53,264 bases of DNA from NCBI RefSeq assembly GCF_010672065.1, contig NZ_JAAHHX010000045.1, forward strand, positions 1 through 53,264. The letters run 5' to 3'. The DNA is from Moorena sp. SIO4A1 (GTDB lineage: Bacteria; Cyanobacteriota; Cyanobacteriia; Cyanobacteriales; Coleofasciculaceae). Position 1 is the first letter of the stretch; every line of letters starts with the position of its first letter. Under the pieces are notes generated by a model, which worked only from the letters and a program-made list of their open reading frames with translations, was not told the DNA's origin and searched no databases. Positions 1 through 53,264 of the stretch are shown here, piece after piece. Position numbers and translations under genes: made by a program.

Positions 1-107
1 CTCTTCTAGGGGTCGGGTTTGCACCGCCATCCGGATGAATAGTTGTAATCTTTCGGGGTTGTCCCCGCGAATTACCTAAGTCTTACCCCTCCTGGTAAAG
101 GAGGCTC

Positions 108-1328
108 TTACTTAGAACAAGCCGCACGTCCTGATTTAGTTGAGATATTGAAATATCCTGATTTTCGAGTTGCAACTCGTCCCACGTAGGTACCGATTTT
201 CTTGCCTTGAGTTACCACAGCACGGACAATATCACCCGTCTGAAAGCCTTTATGAATTTTTGTCCTTGAACAGTGACGGACAGGAAAACCATACTTGTTT
301 GTTCGACAAAGCTGACGAGTTCCGTGACCTTTGGCAGCAATCATCAAAGGTTGGTAGTTTTCGATCATCAATGTTTCAACCTTTCCGACATTCGCTGCGT
401 CTAACCAATGAGTTTTTGGAAGGCTTTGACGGCATCGATTGAATTTAGTCAATCCGCCGCTACCAACCTCAACAGGTAACCCAATTGATTTCAGTTCGTG
501 GTACAACTTCCAACGAGTTGAATTAACAGAAGCCGCATCTGCTAAAGGACGTTTAGCTTGACTTAATACACCCTTGAGAATACTAGGTTTCTTAGACAGG
601 AAAAGCTCAATATCTTGATTATATTTAGCTTGATTGCATGGGCGACACGCAATAGCTAAATTAGAAACCCGATCGGATCCGCCTTTAGACTTGGGTTTGA
701 TATGCTCAATTTCTAACTGAATATCTGTTGCCCCACAATAAGCGCATTTACGATTCCATTTTTCAAGCAAATATTCCCGAAGTTCGTAACCGTAAAGTGT
801 ACCCTGCTGGTACTCGATCCCAGATATTTCAGGATTTTGCAGTTTTTGAGTGTCGAACCTGACCAACTCTTGAGAGATGCCCGTAACAGGACATAATCGA
901 GTCAGTTTTTTAACCCAAGTTAAAATGTTTTGAACTCTAGACGTCAGGCTAGGAGCTAGCCAACTTTTTGGTCTAGTTCTATTAAGAAATCTGGGCTGAC
1001 GATATCGAGTCTTACGGTGGCGTCGGGCACGCCTTAACTGCCTACGAGAGGTTAAAGCGTTTGTTACCTGGAAACCTCTATGAGTAAGCTCGGCTCCCCA
1101 AACCACTCGATTCCCTTGGACGATAGCTAAGCCACTTGTTTTTGCCCCAGGATCTATTTTGATTTGTGACCCGTGAGTTGTTGGTTCTTTTATTTCCTCC
1201 GTCAAGATTATAGTAAACGGATAACGACGATAGACCTTGGCTTTGCCTGCTGAGAGTAAAATTCTAGCTCTCACCGGTTTGCAAGGGTCTAAAGGTTGCC
1301 GATTTTTGTTAAGTACAAATACACGCAT
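108..1328 (-). CDS. iscB: IscB-type RNA-guided endonuclease (OMEGA system; RuvC-HNH nuclease, Cas9-ancestor family)
   Basis: 406 aa. N-terminal PLMP-like block VFVLNKNRQPLDPCKPVRARILL; RuvC-I IKIDPGAKTSGLAIV; Arg-rich bridge helix RRQLRRARRHRKTRYRQPRF; RuvC-II ISQELVRFD; HNH CAYCG..EHIKPKSKGG..NLAIACRPCNQAK; RuvC-III HWLDAANVG. All catalytic D/E/H/D residues present. SD AGGAG about 9 nt upstream of the ATG at 1328. No TnpA nearby. Confidence 0.85.
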   Translation of the reverse strand: MRVFVLNKNRQPLDPCKPVRARILLSAGKAKVYRRYPFTIILTEEIKEPTTHGSQIKIDPGAKTSGLAIVQGNRVVWGAELTHRGFQVTNALTSRRQLRRARRHRKTRYRQPRFLNRTRPKSWLAPSLTSRVQNILTWVKKLTRLCPVTGISQELVRFDTQKLQNPEISGIEYQQGTLYGYELREYLLEKWNRKCAYCGATDIQLEIEHIKPKSKGGSDRVSNLAIACRPCNQAKYNQDIELFLSKKPSILKGVLSQAKRPLADAASVNSTRWKLYHELKSIGLPVEVGSGGLTKFNRCRQSLPKTHWLDAANVGKVETLMIENYQPLMIAAKGHGTRQLCRTNKYGFPVRHCSRTKIHKGFQTGDIVRAVVTQGKKIGTYVGRVATRKSGYFNISTKSGRAACSK

Positions 1329-1615
1329 AACTGTGTTTTCTCCTATCGCTAGGGTAAAGTTAGCTTAGTCAAAGTTATTTCTCGGTACTTTCCCAATCGC
1401 ACTGGTTTAACTCAACTACACCTGTTTAACGACCGGGTTCTAGAGCTGGGGACTAGCTACGCATCCCCAGGTAGGAACTTGAACTCTTAGAAATAACGTA
1501 GTTCTATAAAAACTTAGACTGGTAAACTTTGAGCTTGAAAGCTCCCGCTATAGTCTGTTCGCGCAGCGTCGGCTACGCCGAAATACTTAGCGGTGAGTTG
1601 TTTACAGTTTCCCAA
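1329..1615 (-). ncRNA. candidate IscB omega-RNA (guide + scaffold) encoded directly upstream of iscB
   Basis: 287-nt ORF-free leader on the iscB strand between the stop of the 77-aa ORF (1616) and the iscB ATG. Several local perfect stems on this strand: CTGGGGA..TCCCCAG (1447-1470), GAGCTT..AAGCTC (1531-1546), CGGC-TAC-GCCG (1570-1580). The iscB RBS lies at its 3' end. Position is the canonical one for IscB omega-RNA. Boundaries are approximate. Confidence 0.4.
1557..1583 (+). repeat. REP-like dispersed element copy (GTTCGCGYAGCG + short GC hairpin + AAA/AAGG)
   Basis: GTTCGCGCAGCG-TCGGC-TAC-GCCGA-AA; sits at the 5' edge of the IscB leader. Confidence 0.6.
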
Positions 1616-1849
1616 TTATCTTTGGTGTTGTGCTACCAATTTTTTTAGGTAAGAGTAAGCTTCTTCTGGTGAAAGAGTGAAGATTTGACCTTTGCATAGG
1701 ATTTCGTACCTTCCTAAGTAATAACCATGTCCACCAATTAAACCCATCTTTGCGGCTTGATTGCCAAGCTTGGTTAATTCCTGTCGAATTGAATAGTCCA
1801 ATTCTTCTATTTGTTGATCAATAACTTGATTAATAGTTTGTTCCTTCAT
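1616..1849 (-). CDS. hypothetical small protein (77 aa), no recognisable motif
   Basis: Clean ORF with no overlap. Co-oriented with the upstream 204-aa ORF and immediately abuts the IscB leader. Confidence 0.4.
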   Translation of the reverse strand: MKEQTINQVIDQQIEELDYSIRQELTKLGNQAAKMGLIGGHGYYLGRYEILCKGQIFTLSPEEAYSYLKKLVAQHQR

Positions 1850-3771: not shown

Positions 3772-6700
3772 TCAACCCTTGCTACCACAAGACCTAGGAA
3801 TATACCAATTACTCTTAGGTGTAACAGTATTCGGTTCAGCCGTCAGGATAATTGTACCATCCTCCCCAACAGTCCAACCCTGAGCTTCCACTATTTTCTT
3901 CGGACGAGAAGGAGTAGGAGTCTCGGCAGTGCGGCGTTTCCCTCTCATGGGCAAGTAACTGACCTCAGGGGTAGGAGTAGAGGTAGCTTCTTCGATCTTC
4001 TCTTCTTCAGTATCAAGGGTGATCCAATCTACCAGTACAGACTGTTGATTGATTGGGTCTAGGGGACTCGGGGGTAAGCCACCTCGTCCAGTAACAATGA
4101 ATTCACCCAGTTCATCTACGGCTACTTTTCCGCTACTGGGACAGTTAGCAACAATTAATGCTGAAGGGTCAACTAGTGATGTTGGTAAGTTTTCAGGATC
4201 CTGTGCTGAGCCGGTAATATCCCTGGTCACAGTCCCAGATTGACCACCGCTAAAGCTCAGAGCTGCTATTTCACTATTATTATTCTCAAAAGCTAGGGAT
4301 TCGATTATATTTCCAGATGAGTCCCTAAATGCACGGTCATCTTCGAGTACCTTCATATTGAATAAGCCTTGCAGGGTGATGTTAATTTTTCCACCATCCC
4401 CTTGCTGAGCATTAGCAAATATATCGCTACCTTTCTCATCATTAGTTAGAGGTAGCGCTACTAATACTCCACCAGAAATATCGATATTTCCACCATTGGC
4501 ATTACCTATAGCGCTAGCCAAAATTAGGCTGTTGTTATCGAGTATGATCACTCCCGGTACATTGATTTCGATAGTTGCTGCTTCTTGGTTGTTGGTTTGT
4601 TTGCCAGTAGCAGCTACAAGTTGGCCGTTGTCTAGGGTTAGAGACTCAGCCTTAATGGTTAGTGTGCCAGCTACTCCTCCCTCGCTCTCATCCACATCGG
4701 TTTCTGGAAAACCATTCTGAGTTAATTCTACACCGCTTACTGCTATTCGTGCTCCATTCTCGACAGTTAGCTTATCTGTTTCTATAGTCACATTTCCTGC
4801 TATCCCTGTTTTAGTGGAAGCGGAAATTTCGCTATTGTTTACCGTCAAGATGTCTAAATCTAAGGTTATGTTCCCACCTTGACTTGTTTTGGCAGTGGAA
4901 ATAATTTCAGCACCATCGGTTAGTTGCACTTCATCGGCATCAATGTTGATATCACCACCGGTAAAGTCACTTTCGCTTTGGGCATTCAAAACTCCACCAT
5001 CTGATAGATTCAAGCTCTTTGTTGTTATGTCAATACCCCCTCCTTTACCCTCAGCTCCTTCTCTAGTTGCAGTGGATATGCTACTGGTTCTTTTAACCCC
5101 AGAAATTTCCACAAAATCGGTGGCATTGACTGTAATATTACCTGCTGGGAGTTTGCCATTAGTCGAAGCTTCTAATTTCCCTCCATCTTTGAGGGATAGA
5201 GAGCGAGCTGTAATGGTAATGTTACCAAGGCCTCCTGGGGAGTTTTGCGCGCTCTCTGGGTTTCCCGCGTTACGCCCTATGGCAGTTCGGATGTCGCTAT
5301 TGGTAACCTCAATCTTATCTTTAGCAGTTATCTCGATATTTCCAGGATTTCCCTGACTGTTGTTTGTAGTCTGAGCATCGATCGAGCTTCTATTGCTTAA
5401 GAATAGTGAGCCAGCTTTAATGGTTATCTCGCCACCATTGCCTGTAACTCCCCTTTGGGATCTTGTTTCAATTTGGGCTCGATCTGTCATGATAAATTCT
5501 CCATCAACTTTGATGTCGATCGTGCCCGCGTTTCCATTTCCTGATGTATTAGCAGTTATACCATCAGAACCACCCCTTGGATTTTTATCTGAGCCTAATC
5601 CAATCATCGTCAGTGACCCGACACGAATGTCTATGGAACCGCCGTCACCCCCAGCTTTTGAGTCAGTCCTAGCTGTAATTTGGACTAGACCTCTTTCCGA
5701 TTCAGGATTGCTGGGATCTTTGCGAGCATCAAGCAATAGGGAATCAGCTTCAATCTCAATGCTCCCGCTATTTCCTTCAGCTTTATCTTGAGCGATACTC
5801 TCAATTTTGCTATCGTATTTAACCTCAACTGCTCCACCAGCCAAGATCGTAACTTTTCCTCCGGTTCCCTTACCGCTATTTTGGCTCTTAATTCTGCTGT
5901 TATCAGCCAGGGTAACATTGCCATTGACCTTTAATGAGATATTGCCGACACTGCCCTTTGTTTTGGAATTACGTTGTTCTGTTTTAATGGTACCTTGCTT
6001 TTTCAGGAGTACATCGCCAGTCACATCGATGGTAATGCTGCCGCTATCACCATCTCCCCCTGTTATTGCGGAAATTCCTGGGTTTTGTCTCCTAGATTCG
6101 ATTACCAGGGAGCCAGCAGTAATTTGAATGCTTCCTCCTGGTCCACCTTTTAGTTCACCTTTTTTGTCATCAGTTGTTAAGGTAAAAATTCCATGCTGAT
6201 TTCCGCTATTAGAAGCAATAATCGAAACTGAGTCATCAGCGGTAATAATAATATCACCCCCTTTCTGACCATTTCCCTTAGTTGTGGTGAAGATTCCCTG
6301 CTCTCTTCGAGCCGTCTCTACTGTCAACGAGCCAGTATCGATAGTAATTTTTCCGCCTTCTCCACCTTCTTGATTGGTCATGGTAAAGATGCCATTATCT
6401 CCTCTTCTGCGAGAAGTAGAGCGAACCGATACTGAGTTATCAGCACTTATAATAATATCACCACTTTTATGACCATTATTCTCAGTTTTAGTAAAAATAC
6501 CCTGATCTCGATTAGAGGTTTCTACTTCCAAAGAATCAGCAATAATCCTAATCTCACCACCATCAACATTACTATCTTTTGCTACGAAAGTTTCTATAGC
6601 GCTATCGGTAATTACAACATTCCCTTTCTTGACGCCATCCGGAAAATCTAAACCTAGCTTGTTACCGTCTTTAGTTAATGCTACTTGTCCTGGTGCGCCC

Positions 6701-7395
6701 AATCCCGCTAACAGAATATTCCCACCTTGATTGGTGCTAATCTTACTATCTTTAACCTCAACATCACCACCAAGTAACAATAGGTTATCAACTGCCAGCT
6801 TCTCTAACTTGGCTTGACTGGTAATATTCCCCGGAATTTGATTAAAGAAAAACACATTAGGATTAACCGTCAGCAATGGCGAAGGAGGCTCTGGATTAGA
6901 AGCACTAAACACTCCTTGATTCCCAAACCCAATCCCATCAGCAGTGGTGCCCACAAATGAACCAGATACATCCAGCTTGGCTTTATCCCCAAATAAAATC
7001 CCATTGGGATTAATCAAAAACAAATTCGCTCCACCATCGACACCCAAGGTTCCTAAAATATTGGAGGGATTAGCACCAGTTACCCGAGACAGAATATTTT
7101 CAATCCCAGCTGGATTAGCAAAATAAACTCTTTGCCCGTTTTCAACATTAAATTCTAAAAAACTGTGGAACAAGTTGATATCCCGGATTGCTCCTCCTTT
7201 AATTAGATCAACAATTTTCCCGTTTACATCACCAGAGCCCAGGTCTAGCTGCGATCTTTCCCCTGTGGGCAAGGTAGTATCAGGAGTAATCTGAGCATGA
7301 GCTTGGTTAGCTGAAAATGCGTACGCTCCACTAATGGCTAAACATAGGGCTAACCCTAACTGAGTGTTATACCGTTTCAAGACATCTAATGCCAT
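3772..7395 (-). CDS. two-partner-secretion exoprotein, filamentous haemagglutinin N-terminal (TPS) domain plus long beta-helical repeat region
   Basis: 1207 aa. Signal peptide. TPS-domain hallmarks NPNGILFG and ANPAGIENILSRVTG near the N-terminus. Hundreds of residues of G/N/S/T/I-rich repeat strands. Confidence 0.8.
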   Translation of the reverse strand: MALDVLKRYNTQLGLALCLAISGAYAFSANQAHAQITPDTTLPTGERSQLDLGSGDVNGKIVDLIKGGAIRDINLFHSFLEFNVENGQRVYFANPAGIENILSRVTGANPSNILGTLGVDGGANLFLINPNGILFGDKAKLDVSGSFVGTTADGIGFGNQGVFSASNPEPPSPLLTVNPNVFFFNQIPGNITSQAKLEKLAVDNLLLLGGDVEVKDSKISTNQGGNILLAGLGAPGQVALTKDGNKLGLDFPDGVKKGNVVITDSAIETFVAKDSNVDGGEIRIIADSLEVETSNRDQGIFTKTENNGHKSGDIIISADNSVSVRSTSRRRGDNGIFTMTNQEGGEGGKITIDTGSLTVETARREQGIFTTTKGNGQKGGDIIITADDSVSIIASNSGNQHGIFTLTTDDKKGELKGGPGGSIQITAGSLVIESRRQNPGISAITGGDGDSGSITIDVTGDVLLKKQGTIKTEQRNSKTKGSVGNISLKVNGNVTLADNSRIKSQNSGKGTGGKVTILAGGAVEVKYDSKIESIAQDKAEGNSGSIEIEADSLLLDARKDPSNPESERGLVQITARTDSKAGGDGGSIDIRVGSLTMIGLGSDKNPRGGSDGITANTSGNGNAGTIDIKVDGEFIMTDRAQIETRSQRGVTGNGGEITIKAGSLFLSNRSSIDAQTTNNSQGNPGNIEITAKDKIEVTNSDIRTAIGRNAGNPESAQNSPGGLGNITITARSLSLKDGGKLEASTNGKLPAGNITVNATDFVEISGVKRTSSISTATREGAEGKGGGIDITTKSLNLSDGGVLNAQSESDFTGGDINIDADEVQLTDGAEIISTAKTSQGGNITLDLDILTVNNSEISASTKTGIAGNVTIETDKLTVENGARIAVSGVELTQNGFPETDVDESEGGVAGTLTIKAESLTLDNGQLVAATGKQTNNQEAATIEINVPGVIILDNNSLILASAIGNANGGNIDISGGVLVALPLTNDEKGSDIFANAQQGDGGKINITLQGLFNMKVLEDDRAFRDSSGNIIESLAFENNNSEIAALSFSGGQSGTVTRDITGSAQDPENLPTSLVDPSALIVANCPSSGKVAVDELGEFIVTGRGGLPPSPLDPINQQSVLVDWITLDTEEEKIEEATSTPTPEVSYLPMRGKRRTAETPTPSRPKKIVEAQGWTVGEDGTIILTAEPNTVTPKSNWYIPRSCGSKG

Positions 7396-16194: not shown

Positions 16195-16480
16195 AATCTA
16201 TGCTATGCTATTCAATCTATTGAGACCGATTTGAATTAATACATCATAGCAAAGATGAGCAGTAAGCTTACCCCGGGCTGTTGGCGTAGCCTGCCGCCAG
16301 GCATAGCACGGGGGCTTTCGCCCAGGCAACAGGCGCGTTGGTTTTCAGTACCCCTAGCTAACTAACGCCCTTAGACTCCCAATTAATTGAGCCTAAGGGT
16401 TAAGGGCTGAACCTCTAGGTCTGCTTACTCTACGGAAACCCGTAGCTTCTACAACCGAGTCAATTCCCGGACGACCCCAT

Positions 16481-16555
16481 TGAGAATTAAGAATTGAGAA
16501 TTGAGAATTGAGAATTGGTATTTCTGAATTCTTGATTCTTGATTCTTGATTCTTC
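16481..16555. repeat. Two adjacent heptamer arrays (GAATTGA x4; ATTCTTG x4)
   Basis: Direct reading. Confidence 0.9.
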
Positions 16556-16840
16556 AACATTGCTCCGATTTACGTATCACTCGCCGATACTAACCTACTG
16601 GCCTAGCCGTTTTCTCCAGAGCTAAGAGTGCCTTGGCCAATTTCAACCTATATCTATTATACTTTACTGGGGTTAAAACTGCTATGCCGCTTCATCCCGG
16701 AGACGAAACCTTTGTTTCTTACGTGAGACAGCCTCTGACTTGCAGTCATGCCAAATCTGGGTCTAATAGCACCGTTAACCAAACTGGTAATATGAACAGT
16801 GTATTATATCGCAATGACTCAATTTAGGAATTGATGCCTG

Positions 16841-36974: not shown

Positions 36975-37174
36975 ACGATGAAGCATGAAGGATGAAGGAT
37001 ATACTAAGAGCCGTCAGCTGACGCGCTACTTAAAAATCTAGGCTTGCCAGCTATCAGCTGAAAGCCCCTGTAGCTTAGAGCATCAGTTCGAGCAGCCAGA
37101 TCAGTATATGCCCAACGGTTCGATAACAACCTAGGATTGATCGGATTAGCTGATTAACCAATTCATGACATGGT

Positions 37175-37218
37175 TCATACTTCATACTTCATACTTCATA
37201 CTTCATAGTTCATACTTC
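37175..37218. repeat. STRR-like heptamer array (CATACTT x6) inside the rpsH-rplF spacer
   Basis: Direct reading. Confidence 0.9.
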
Positions 37219-37239
37219 TTTAGTTAGGAGGATTATTTT

Positions 37240-51724: not shown

Positions 51725-53059
51725 GTGATGACTATTGATCAGGTACTTGACATCCTCAAAAGTGTTGAGAAAATCAAGTTAACTCCACTTCAGGAATGGA
51801 TATTGCACCAAGCCTGGGAAGGAAAAACCTATACCGATATGGCGATCGAAGCACACTATGGCCCTGAATACCTCAGAAAGACTGCCTATAAGTTGTGGCG
51901 ATTACTGGGAGACATTTTTGGCAAAGCGATCACCAAGACCAATTTCCGGAACACCCTGGAAACAACCCCGATTACTTCCTACCATCAAGAACTAATTCAG
52001 CAATATTACCGCCGTCAATGCCTACGTAAAATTGCTGAATTTCCTAGTGGAGCACTTCCCCTACCATCTCACCTTTATATAGAGCGTCCTCCGATTGAAG
52101 AGCTTTGCTATCAAGCCATTCACCAACCCGGAAGTTTACTCCGGATTACAGGACCAAAAGAGACAGGAAAAACGTCTTTGCTATTGCGAATATTAGACCA
52201 GGCAAGAGAAAAACAATATGGCAGAGTTTACCTCAATTTTAACCAAGCAGAAACCGCCATTTTAAGCAATTTAGACCGGCTATTGCGCTGGTTATGTGTT
52301 AACATCAGTTACCAACTCCAGCTTCCCCAGCAACTGGATGACTATTGGGATAAAGACCTAGGCAGTAAGGTCAGCTGTATGAGTTACTTACAAGAACATA
52401 TCCTAGAAAAAATAGACCATCCCCTAGTTTTGGCAATGGATGAAGTCCATCGGTTGTTTGAGCATACCCAAACTGCTAAAGATTTTTTACCCTTATTGCG
52501 CTCTTGGCATGAGGAATCTAAACAACTACCGCTGTGGCGAAAGCTGCGGGTTGTTGTGGTTTACTCGACAGAAATTTATGTTGCTCTGGAAACTTCCCAA
52601 TCTCCGTTTAATGTGGGATTACCGATTAAGTTACCCGAGTTTAACAAACAGCAAATCCAACAGTTAGCTCAGCTTTATAGATTACATTGGTCAAATAGTG
52701 AAGCTGCTGGCAAACTGATGGCTGTGGTGGGGGGACATCCGGGATTAGTGCAGCTTGCTCTGTATCACTTGGCTTATCATAATATTAGCCTAGAACAATT
52801 ACTCGCTGAAGCAGCTACTGCTACGGGAATTTATAGTGACTATTTGCGGCAACACTTAAGTGTACTTAGGGCAAATCCTGATTTAGCTACTACTCTTAAA
52901 CAGGTGGTTGCAGCAGATAGGGGAGTTGAGCTCGATCCAATCAGTATCTATAAGTTACAGAGTATGGGTTTGGTGAGTGTTCAGAGAAATCAAGTTACAC
53001 TCTGTTGTAATTTATATCGTCAGTATTTTTTAGAACACCTTGATATGTTGAAGGTTTAA
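51725..53059 (+). CDS. AAA-like domain protein (cyanobacterial pfam AAA_35-type ATPase with N-terminal HTH-like segment)
   Basis: 444 aa. LTPLQEWILHQAWEGKTYTDMA.. then Walker A GPKETGKTSLL, hhhhDE LVLAMDEVH. ..VVGGHPGLVQLALYHLA. Confidence 0.7.
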   Translation: MMTIDQVLDILKSVEKIKLTPLQEWILHQAWEGKTYTDMAIEAHYGPEYLRKTAYKLWRLLGDIFGKAITKTNFRNTLETTPITSYHQELIQQYYRRQCLRKIAEFPSGALPLPSHLYIERPPIEELCYQAIHQPGSLLRITGPKETGKTSLLLRILDQAREKQYGRVYLNFNQAETAILSNLDRLLRWLCVNISYQLQLPQQLDDYWDKDLGSKVSCMSYLQEHILEKIDHPLVLAMDEVHRLFEHTQTAKDFLPLLRSWHEESKQLPLWRKLRVVVVYSTEIYVALETSQSPFNVGLPIKLPEFNKQQIQQLAQLYRLHWSNSEAAGKLMAVVGGHPGLVQLALYHLAYHNISLEQLLAEAATATGIYSDYLRQHLSVLRANPDLATTLKQVVAADRGVELDPISIYKLQSMGLVSVQRNQVTLCCNLYRQYFLEHLDMLKV

Positions 53060-53264
53060 GGTTTAAGGTTTAATGTTGAAGGTTTAATGTTGAAGGTTTA
53101 ATGTTGAAGGTTTAATGTTGAAGGTTGTCTGTCAGAATTAATTCTTAATTCTTAATTCTTAATTCTTAATTCTTAATTCTTAATTCTTAATTCTTAATTC
53201 TTAATTCTTAATTCTTAATTCTTAATTCTTAATTCTTAATTCTTAATTCTTAATTCTTAATTCT
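53051..53264. repeat. Heptamer-based tandem arrays (AAGGTTT / AATGTTG units, then AATTCTT x about 18) starting in the stop codon of the AAA-like gene and running off the window
   Basis: Direct reading. Confidence 0.95.

Follow-up and report, generated by a model that had tools for sequence, protein, structure and literature searches.

We analyzed 53,264 nt of DNA from Moorena sp. SIO4A1 (contig NZ_JAAHHX010000045.1, assembly GCF_010672065.1), a 53-kb stretch that is referred to here as the window. One end of it carries, in minus-strand order, the gene of a 77-aa host protein, a 287-nt leader that is free of open reading frames (ORFs; 1329-1615) and, directly downstream on the same strand, a 406-aa ORF (108..1328 in the ORF list of the window) that encodes a member of the IscB nuclease family and runs at its 3' end into 127 nt of inserted sequence (Table 1). 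An earlier reading of this DNA, made from its letters alone (the sequence-only reading), had reported the same ORF and leader, the iscB ribosome-binding site at the 3' end of the leader and an omega-RNA directly upstream on the same strand, and had described the gene as an intact IscB (OMEGA) nuclease. That description was confirmed in part; the gene is interrupted.

Table 1. Features of the interrupted iscB element and its flank, in window coordinates.
Feature	Position	Strand	Basis and remarks
Host 77-aa ORF	1616..1849	(-)	adjoins the element upstream; stop codon inside the guide segment
Omega-RNA guide segment AGAUAAUUGGGAAACU (putative)	1606..1621	(-)	host flank just 5' of the element end at 1605; 16-nt length assumed
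Omega-RNA scaffold (HEARO RNA)	1354..1605	(-)	Rfam RF02033
23-nt mini-repeat insertion CGGCGUAGCCGACGCUGCGCGAA	1558..1580	(-)	apical loop of the first omega-RNA hairpin; dispersed repeat family
Shine-Dalgarno sequence AGGAG of iscB	1340..1344	(-)	sequence; 11 nt upstream of the ATG
iscB exon 1: codons 1-400 and first base of codon 401	128..1328	(-)	Pfam, NCBIfam, PDB phmmer, paralogue identity; PLMP-like, split RuvC, bridge helix, HNH, most of the TAM-interacting domain
Insert-derived ORF tail: last two bases of codon 401, AACSK, stop	108..127	(-)	replaces the conserved LVQGISHKYCQFIHRKDGYAYTN
First 127 nt of the inserted multi-copy element, starting GUGCGGCUUG...	1..127	(-), read 127 down to 1	homology break and three identical copies; rest beyond the window edge

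By its sequence, the ORF is an IscB-type nuclease gene, for which RNA-guided cleavage dependent on a target-adjacent motif (TAM) is predicted. Profile hidden Markov models place a full-length RRXRR match (Pfam) at residues 3-176 (E=8.6e-76) and an HNH domain C-terminal to it at residues 195-238 (7.4e-13). The NCBIfam equivalog NF040563, guided_IscB ('RNA-guided endonuclease IscB'), scored 473.6 bits against a cutoff of 175; this model spans residues 3-315 only, and a C-terminal defect is therefore invisible to it. Among solved structures in the PDB, the best phmmer matches were TbaIscB (2e-42) and OgeuIscB (7e-28), and a Foldseek search with an AlphaFold model of a full-length paralogue ranked the IscB-omega-RNA complexes 8CSZ, 9K30 and 7XHT first. 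The domains follow the order PLMP-like N-terminus, RuvC-I, Arg-rich helix, RuvC-II, HNH and RuvC-III, with the PLMP domain and the bridge helix recognized through the RRXRR and guided_IscB profiles. RuvC residues D59 (IDPG), E154 (SQELVRFD) and H307/D310 (THWLDA) line up with the active-site motifs of OgeuIscB and are invariant in alignments of 11 and 34 sequences. H209 and N232 of the HNH domain also line up with these motifs and, like the HNH cysteines C195/C198 and C228/C231 (CxxC...CxxC), are invariant among relatives. The full catalytic set is thus present, as had been claimed. NCBI already lists the identical protein, without a partial flag, under the name 'MULTISPECIES: RNA-guided endonuclease IscB [unclassified Moorena]'; JAAHHZ010000148.1 is one of the contigs that encode it.

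A covariance-model scan of the leader identified it as HEARO RNA. The match to RF02033 covers model positions 1-211 completely at 128.5 bits (gathering threshold 83; E=1.3e-27), and HEARO is the sole Rfam family above threshold in the window. It was found in the same place upstream of iscB in all 20 of the paralogous Moorena-type loci scanned, at 94-144 bits, and the TAGGAG of the ribosome-binding site is invariant across 14 paralogues. HEARO RNA was later shown to be the omega-RNA of IscB (PMC13565253; PMC10055086). On the strength of this match, the leader is the omega-RNA of the adjoining iscB.

The 5' end of the element could be defined from an alignment of 14 copies, in which conservation starts sharply at GT(A/C)AA(C/T)AACTC, window position 1605, while the upstream sequences are unrelated. 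The element therefore ends in GT at 1605 on the minus strand (terminal sequence GTAAAC...). Dozens of dispersed Moorena copies are likewise conserved from this GT to just before an ATGA and sit in unrelated flanks. The 77-aa host protein is identical on at least 23 Moorena contigs, and the ten of these that were displayed, including those of M. producens JHB and 3L, carry no iscB downstream. The empty sites in these ten Moorena assemblies read ...AAAG(A/G)TAATTGG(G/T)AAACT^ATGAA... (the caret marks the insertion point) and continue as ATGAA(T/G)TGTGAAGG; the window counterpart reads ...AAAGATAATTGGGAAACT^GTAAACAAC.... The element was thus inserted exactly between AAACT and ATGA, 10 nt past the stop of the host gene, which places its start at 1605 and its guide at about 1606-1621, overlapping the stop codon of the host ORF. 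The sequence-only reading had correctly sought the guide in the 5' flank, at about 1590-1615; these coordinates are some 15 nt off, since 1590-1605 is conserved scaffold and the variable flank begins at 1606.

The natural target of such a guide would be the empty allele, followed by ATGA, and from this comparison ATGA is the predicted TAM. ATGAA at the empty site is the reverse complement of TTCAT, which is the TAM of GstIscB (PMC10055086). The other end of the element lies outside the window and was read from complete paralogues, where the iscB stop is followed by a conserved end of about 70-115 nt that finishes GGAGGCGGACAG^ATGA (...CAG^ATGA); the distal end of the ISC family terminates ...GGCGGACAG. 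Insertion was precise and without target duplication, as judged at the omega-RNA-side junction from the ten empty sites and at the far junction from the paralogues. Taken together, profile, covariance-model, structural and empty-site evidence confirm the locus as an IscB (OMEGA) system. In the locus, to which the search was confined, no tnpA lies beside the element, and neither of the two upstream ORFs matches a Pfam family. The sequence-only reading had called this a TnpA-less element derived from IS200/605. The element type is supported; the TnpA-less state is no special feature but the norm for iscB, as tnpA is found near only about 1.5% of iscB genes (Meers et al., PMC10055086).

The gene itself does not reach its natural end. 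Identity to the 423-aa Moorena IscB paralogues is 86-91% up to residue 400, and homology to these uninterrupted copies stops at window nt 128-130. Most relatives are 423-424 aa long and end ...ISTKSG-LVQGISHKYCQFIHRKDGYAYTN, whereas the window protein (...STKSG-RAACSK) and two homologues, P0012 and P0017, end ...ISTKSG-(R/C)AACSK. The last six codons and the stop (nt 127-108) are non-IscB sequence that comes from an inserted repeat, reading GTGCGGCTTGTTCTAAG... from window nt 127 to 1. The AACSK tail occurs in 3 of 120 homologue clusters; it is missing from the other 117, of which 104 end 12 residues or fewer from the ...KDGYxY motif. The same 127 nt are found, 100% identical and at the same iscB position, in two of the compared loci (numbered with the prefix L): L070, another iscB paralogue from the same assembly as L001, and L069, from another strain. 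In every interrupted copy the sequence breaks off exactly 127 nt in, at a contig end or at a single scaffold N, which is the mark of a multi-copy repeat that breaks assembly at k=127.

Filled and empty alleles could be paired for both additional copies. L069 matches the uninterrupted L015 at 99.07% identity over 4201 nt, and L070 pairs with L013, likewise uninterrupted (99.8% identity, 2516 nt); each alignment breaks off at the junction. Divergence among the three interrupted copies is about 13%, with differences within 12-20 nt of the junction. Given these differences and the near-identical empty orthologues, the same nucleotide was hit independently and recently. Judged from these alleles, iscB is interrupted after nt 1 of codon 401. 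Uninterrupted copies carry 23 more codons past the break, and this 3' exon (iscB exon 2) starts TGGTGCAAGG... or TGGTGCAAGGAATCAGTCAC.... In the AlphaFold model of a full-length paralogue, the C-terminal domain closes with two beta-strands, at residues 400-406 and 410-414, and residues 361-410 have a pLDDT (predicted local distance difference test) in the 80s. In the contiguous ORF, the 23 conserved residues that complete this TAM-interacting domain are missing and a foreign tail takes over from nt 127; the gene is therefore not intact. Because the two modeled strands are missing, the 406-aa product is probably defective in the TAM-interacting domain.

What is the insert? Group II introns begin with the consensus GUGYG. 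The insert starts GUGCG (window 127-123) directly after the last exon base, and GTGYG has a background frequency of 0.0007 per position in the window. It lies in the sense orientation at the same nucleotide of three iscB paralogues, is judged to be multi-copy because assemblies break 127 nt in, and is preceded by an exon base that is either C or U, both of which could pair with a G in RNA. Moorena producens is listed among the group II intron-rich genomes (PMC8919778). Furthermore, two other cyanobacterial IscB loci contain above-threshold matches to domain V/VI of Rfam Intron_gpII. In a Spirulina metagenome-assembled genome (L031:44-120) the match lies at the contig start and runs into the middle of HEARO; in Stigonema ocellatum (L041:164-241) it also lies at the contig start and enters iscB some 13 codons before the IKIDPG motif, with a second domain-V-like hairpin at 52-83. 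From the GUGCG start, the sense orientation, the multi-copy and site-specific character, the intron richness of M. producens and the L031 and L041 matches, we consider it probable, with good confidence, that the insert is a multi-copy group II intron. For the locus as a whole, our reading is that window 128-1605 on the minus strand represents the 5' three quarters of an ISC element that is non-autonomous and has its iscB interrupted by a probable group II intron, and we assign this a probability of about 0.72.

Several results weigh against this reading. A scan of nt 1-135 with Rfam returned no group II family at E<=10 and only a chance RAGATH-28 match (E=7.7); nt 1-127 would hold about one quarter of domain I, a part that the Rfam D1-D4 models may not cover. 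The fold of the 127 nt is no more stable than that of shuffled sequences (z = -0.72). No more than these 127 nt of the insert are visible, with domain V/VI, an intron-encoded protein, the pairing of exon- and intron-binding sites (EBS-IBS) and the 3' exon all lying beyond the contigs. At L069:7329, a single N 127 nt past the junction is followed not by exon 2 but by an unrelated C-terminal fragment of chlI (Mg-chelatase I). Finally, a search of minus-strand positions 1-2700 gave no sigma-70-like promoter, and read-through from the 77-aa host ORF is therefore the likely source of omega-RNA transcription.

The L069 joint may be a mis-scaffold through a repeat, a short insert or a real rearrangement. 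No other single N occurs in the roughly 590 kb of compared loci, and the chlI 3' fragment behind this one is followed by a CHAT-domain gene. The matches to the 59-aa chlI fragment were all short, partial ChlI sequences from organisms other than Moorena, and BLAST of the region past the N found no match in the other compared loci; the homologue P0027, considered as an explanation of the joint, is a different paralogous locus. BLAST of the 127 nt against the 80 compared loci and the window recovered only the three junction copies, plus L001, which is the window copy in another assembly record. No matches were obtained in exact scans of metagenome contigs with the 5' 25-mer and an internal 25-mer of the insert, in a scan of viral contigs or in a distant BLAST against plasmids, and a full-text literature search for the insert sequence yielded nothing relevant. 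For the exon-2 contig of strain SIO4A5, a search with a CbiO+FabH chimera recovered only the FabH cluster representative of M. producens JHB. An EBS1-like match within the 127 nt was rejected, as it contains one mismatch and the segment is self-palindromic.

The insert could instead be another site-specific or homing element or a recombination joint (for example a short PATE/MITE-like IS200/605 derivative or an IS110-type element). The L069 scaffold, with one N between the 127 nt and chlI, suggests that little sequence lies between them. The iscB would then be a 3'-truncated pseudogene, with omega-RNA perhaps still being made. The missing covariance-model support for an intron in the 127 nt is compatible with this, and so are a pair of small hairpins within the 127 nt that resemble those of IS200/605 ends and the many other small insertions and insertion-sequence matches in Moorena copies. 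Such an element is nevertheless hard to reconcile with the group II consensus at the start of the insert, the lack of a terminal inverted repeat and the variable C/U at the -1 position; a target specificity of 4-5 nt cannot explain three independent events at one nucleotide, and group II introns are proven in other cyanobacterial IscB elements. Of the specific candidates, IS110-type insertion was rejected for want of a conserved core dinucleotide and because of the variable -1 base, and an ISC/IS605 insertion at ATGA was rejected because the site has no ATGA. We regard this explanation as unlikely overall.

Two further explanations would leave the gene uninterrupted, and both appear far less plausible. 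The 406-aa ORF could be a complete, functional IscB with a naturally shorter C-terminus, as the sequence-only reading held: it is open, it has all catalytic residues, NCBI names it IscB without a partial flag, and its ...AACSK tail is common to three proteins. We consider this very improbable. The tail is nucleotide-identical among copies whose iscB parts differ by about 13%, near-identical insert-free orthologues encode the canonical 423 aa, 117 of 120 homologue clusters do not have the tail, the missing residues form two confidently modeled beta-strands, and the NCBI name derives from a model (residues 3-315) that cannot flag a C-terminal defect. Still less credible is an assembly artefact at the 127/128 junction, a chimeric de Bruijn path through a repeat. 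Its appeal is that every example stops exactly 127 nt beyond the junction; 127 is a common maximum k-mer size, and the contig ends are thus graph-driven. The same junction is present, however, in three different paralogues, which come from two or more assemblies; the window copy itself recurs, with this junction and contig end, in a third record, GCA_010672005.1 (Moorena sp. SIO4A5; L001); the contigs run unbranched for 127 nt past the junction, with the uninterrupted path absent for these copies; and copy-specific variants lie within 12-20 nt of it.

With identity, boundaries, target site and interruption observed as above, we infer the transcription, cleavage, mobility and splicing of the element from the biology of its family. 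The comparisons above show an ISC element (IS200/IS605 superfamily) that inserted between AAACT and ATGA downstream of the 77-aa host gene; its first 252 nt encode the HEARO-type omega-RNA scaffold, and an iscB with a complete catalytic set comes next. Transcription from the host gene would yield an RNA whose 5' approximately 16 nt (1621-1606) serve as the guide. IscB and omega-RNA could then cut a guide match followed by ATGA, as present at the scarless joint left by excision or in the empty allele, and recombination with a filled copy would restore the element; a Y1 TnpA acting in trans may move it. The group II intron, in turn, would have homed in the sense orientation into one shared site in three or more diverged iscB paralogues. 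If the insert is an intron, the 423-aa IscB would be made only after splicing, and the unspliced 406-aa product, without two strands of the TAM-interacting domain, would probably be inactive.

The Moorena system resembles OgeuIscB and the other solved complexes (7XHT, 7UTN, 8CSZ, 9K30) in domain order and catalytic residues and in an omega-RNA whose gene precedes iscB on the same strand and whose 5' end is the guide; they are also its best sequence and fold matches. In contrast to these complexes, the Moorena protein, at 423 aa when complete, is smaller by about 70 residues, shares roughly 20% identity with them (19-24% in Foldseek) and has a predicted activity, and its gene is interrupted at codon 401. 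Cyanobacterial ISC transposons are known to target N^ATGA and to have a 5'-GT terminus (Kapitonov, Makarova and Koonin 2016, PMC4810608). ISC1-1_MA of Microcystis is one example, being non-autonomous, about 1.6 kb long, limited to IscB, 5'-GT-ended, inserted upstream of ATGA and free of target duplication (PMC4810608). It belongs to another host genus and family, the ISC1 elements of that study have no HNH domain whereas the Moorena IscB has one, and the window copy bears two secondary insertions. GstIscB likewise has a HEARO-like omega-RNA bounded by the transposon end, a TAM (TTCAT) that reads ATGAA on the iscB strand and no tnpA in cis; its mechanism has been demonstrated (PMC10055086), whereas that of the Moorena element is inferred. 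Relative to the HEARO family RF02033, to which it is a full-length match above the gathering threshold, the Moorena RNA differs in the 23-nt dispersed-repeat insertion in its first hairpin.

For the interruption, a functional analogy is offered by IStrons, in which a group I intron accompanies TnpB and a self-splicing element in a transposon gene makes nuclease or guide output dependent on, or competitive with, splicing (PMC10690162). The IStron intron, however, is a group I intron and part of the transposon itself, while the Moorena insert is a secondary invader of iscB and a probable intron. Bacterial group II introns lodged in other mobile elements are similarly nested in a transposon gene, although in Moorena the identity of the insert as an intron is no more than probable.

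IscB, HEARO/omega-RNA, ISC transposons that target N^ATGA and the NCBI name of this protein are already known, and as such the locus adds little. The additions are modest: a probable intron at one iscB site in three paralogues, introns in other cyanobacterial omega-RNA and iscB genes and a distal end that bears a Shine-Dalgarno sequence and abuts host start codons. Natural filled and empty alleles are useful in that they display the guide, the element end and the TAM (ATGA) directly. Some caution is needed with 406-aa database entries named IscB, which are interrupted genes with a foreign tail, since the naming model stops at residue 315. A possible repeated invasion of cyanobacterial iscB and omega-RNA genes by group II introns is a lead that could bear on the mining of compact nucleases and on conflict between nested mobile elements. 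We tentatively raise the possibility, which we would not favor at present, of a group II intron lineage that specializes in homing into iscB at codon 400/401, with relatives in the omega-RNA gene or the iscB 5' region of other cyanobacteria. If this were true, one selfish element would make the RNA-guided nuclease or guide RNA of another dependent on splicing, and the nested parasite could throttle or time OMEGA activity, akin to the conflict between intron and guide RNA in IStrons.

The omega-RNA gene carries a second, smaller insertion. The window contains 11 instances of the motif ACGCTNCGCGAAC, one of them at 1557-1569, where 0.06 would be expected. The sequence-only reading had reported a repetitive extragenic palindromic (REP)-like repeat here (1557-1583), at the 5' edge of the leader; the repeat is real, but it lies inside the first omega-RNA hairpin. 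The HEARO match leaves a 41-nt unaligned loop in this hairpin, which contains the 23-nt insertion, and by folding the insertion merely extends the hairpin. Most paralogues do not have it, L006 shares it, and in L015 and L069 it is longer. A reverse-oriented copy is seen near the HEARO 3' end in L002, L010 and L016. The two positions and both orientations across HEARO copies show that such mini-elements struck this RNA gene more than once. The unit, a short GC hairpin plus ACGCTNCGCGAAC of about 23-26 nt, behaves like a mobile mini-element; elsewhere in the window it is found at 20690-20960, 29025 and 45780, and near 20.8 kb it forms a tandem array with a 39-nt period (20762-20972).

Further observations concern the distal ends of other copies. 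These junctions lie about 70-115 nt past the iscB stop (for example L015:4342, L008:4339 and L003:4343). At 9 of 12 distinct loci (L002-L016, L028), the ATG of the target ATGA serves as start codon for a host ORF (89-810 aa), with glutaredoxin-like, KatG-like and VWA proteins among those encoded, and the element end supplies a Shine-Dalgarno sequence 8 nt upstream of this start codon. The target ATGA of the window copy is itself not a gene start, and its empty-site flank is rich in heptamers (GAAGGAT).

Other copies have been altered in other ways. In L016 (1385-2965) an insertion sequence of about 1.58 kb lies between HEARO and the iscB start codon, with a transposase ORF on the opposite strand and GAGAAATAAC duplicated on both sides, a secondary hit on the IscB element. 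Decayed IscB genes are present in L057 (2850-3060), where the omega-RNA is kept and a deletion fuses about codon 8 to about codon 151, and in L064 (3690-3840), which diverges after ...LACQH in the HNH domain. No HIP1 motif is present in the window element. The sequence-only reading had remarked on its absence from iscB, which is correct for the whole element yet uninformative, as only 0.5 copies are expected, and we accordingly rejected it as a sign of foreign origin.

Upstream of the locus, a gene for a 1207-aa exoprotein with a TPS domain (two-partner-secretion type; 3772-7395) is a strain-variable island by comparison with L071-L080. It is absent from the closest strain, L076, whose flanks are 99% identical, and encodes 1335 aa in L072; in M. 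producens JHB (L074) a resolvase and a TnpB-like gene stand in its place. Tandem heptamer repeats of the TTAATTC, TACTTCA and GAATTGA types occur at 16476-16580, 37163-37239 and 53045-53264, and the window ends inside one of them.

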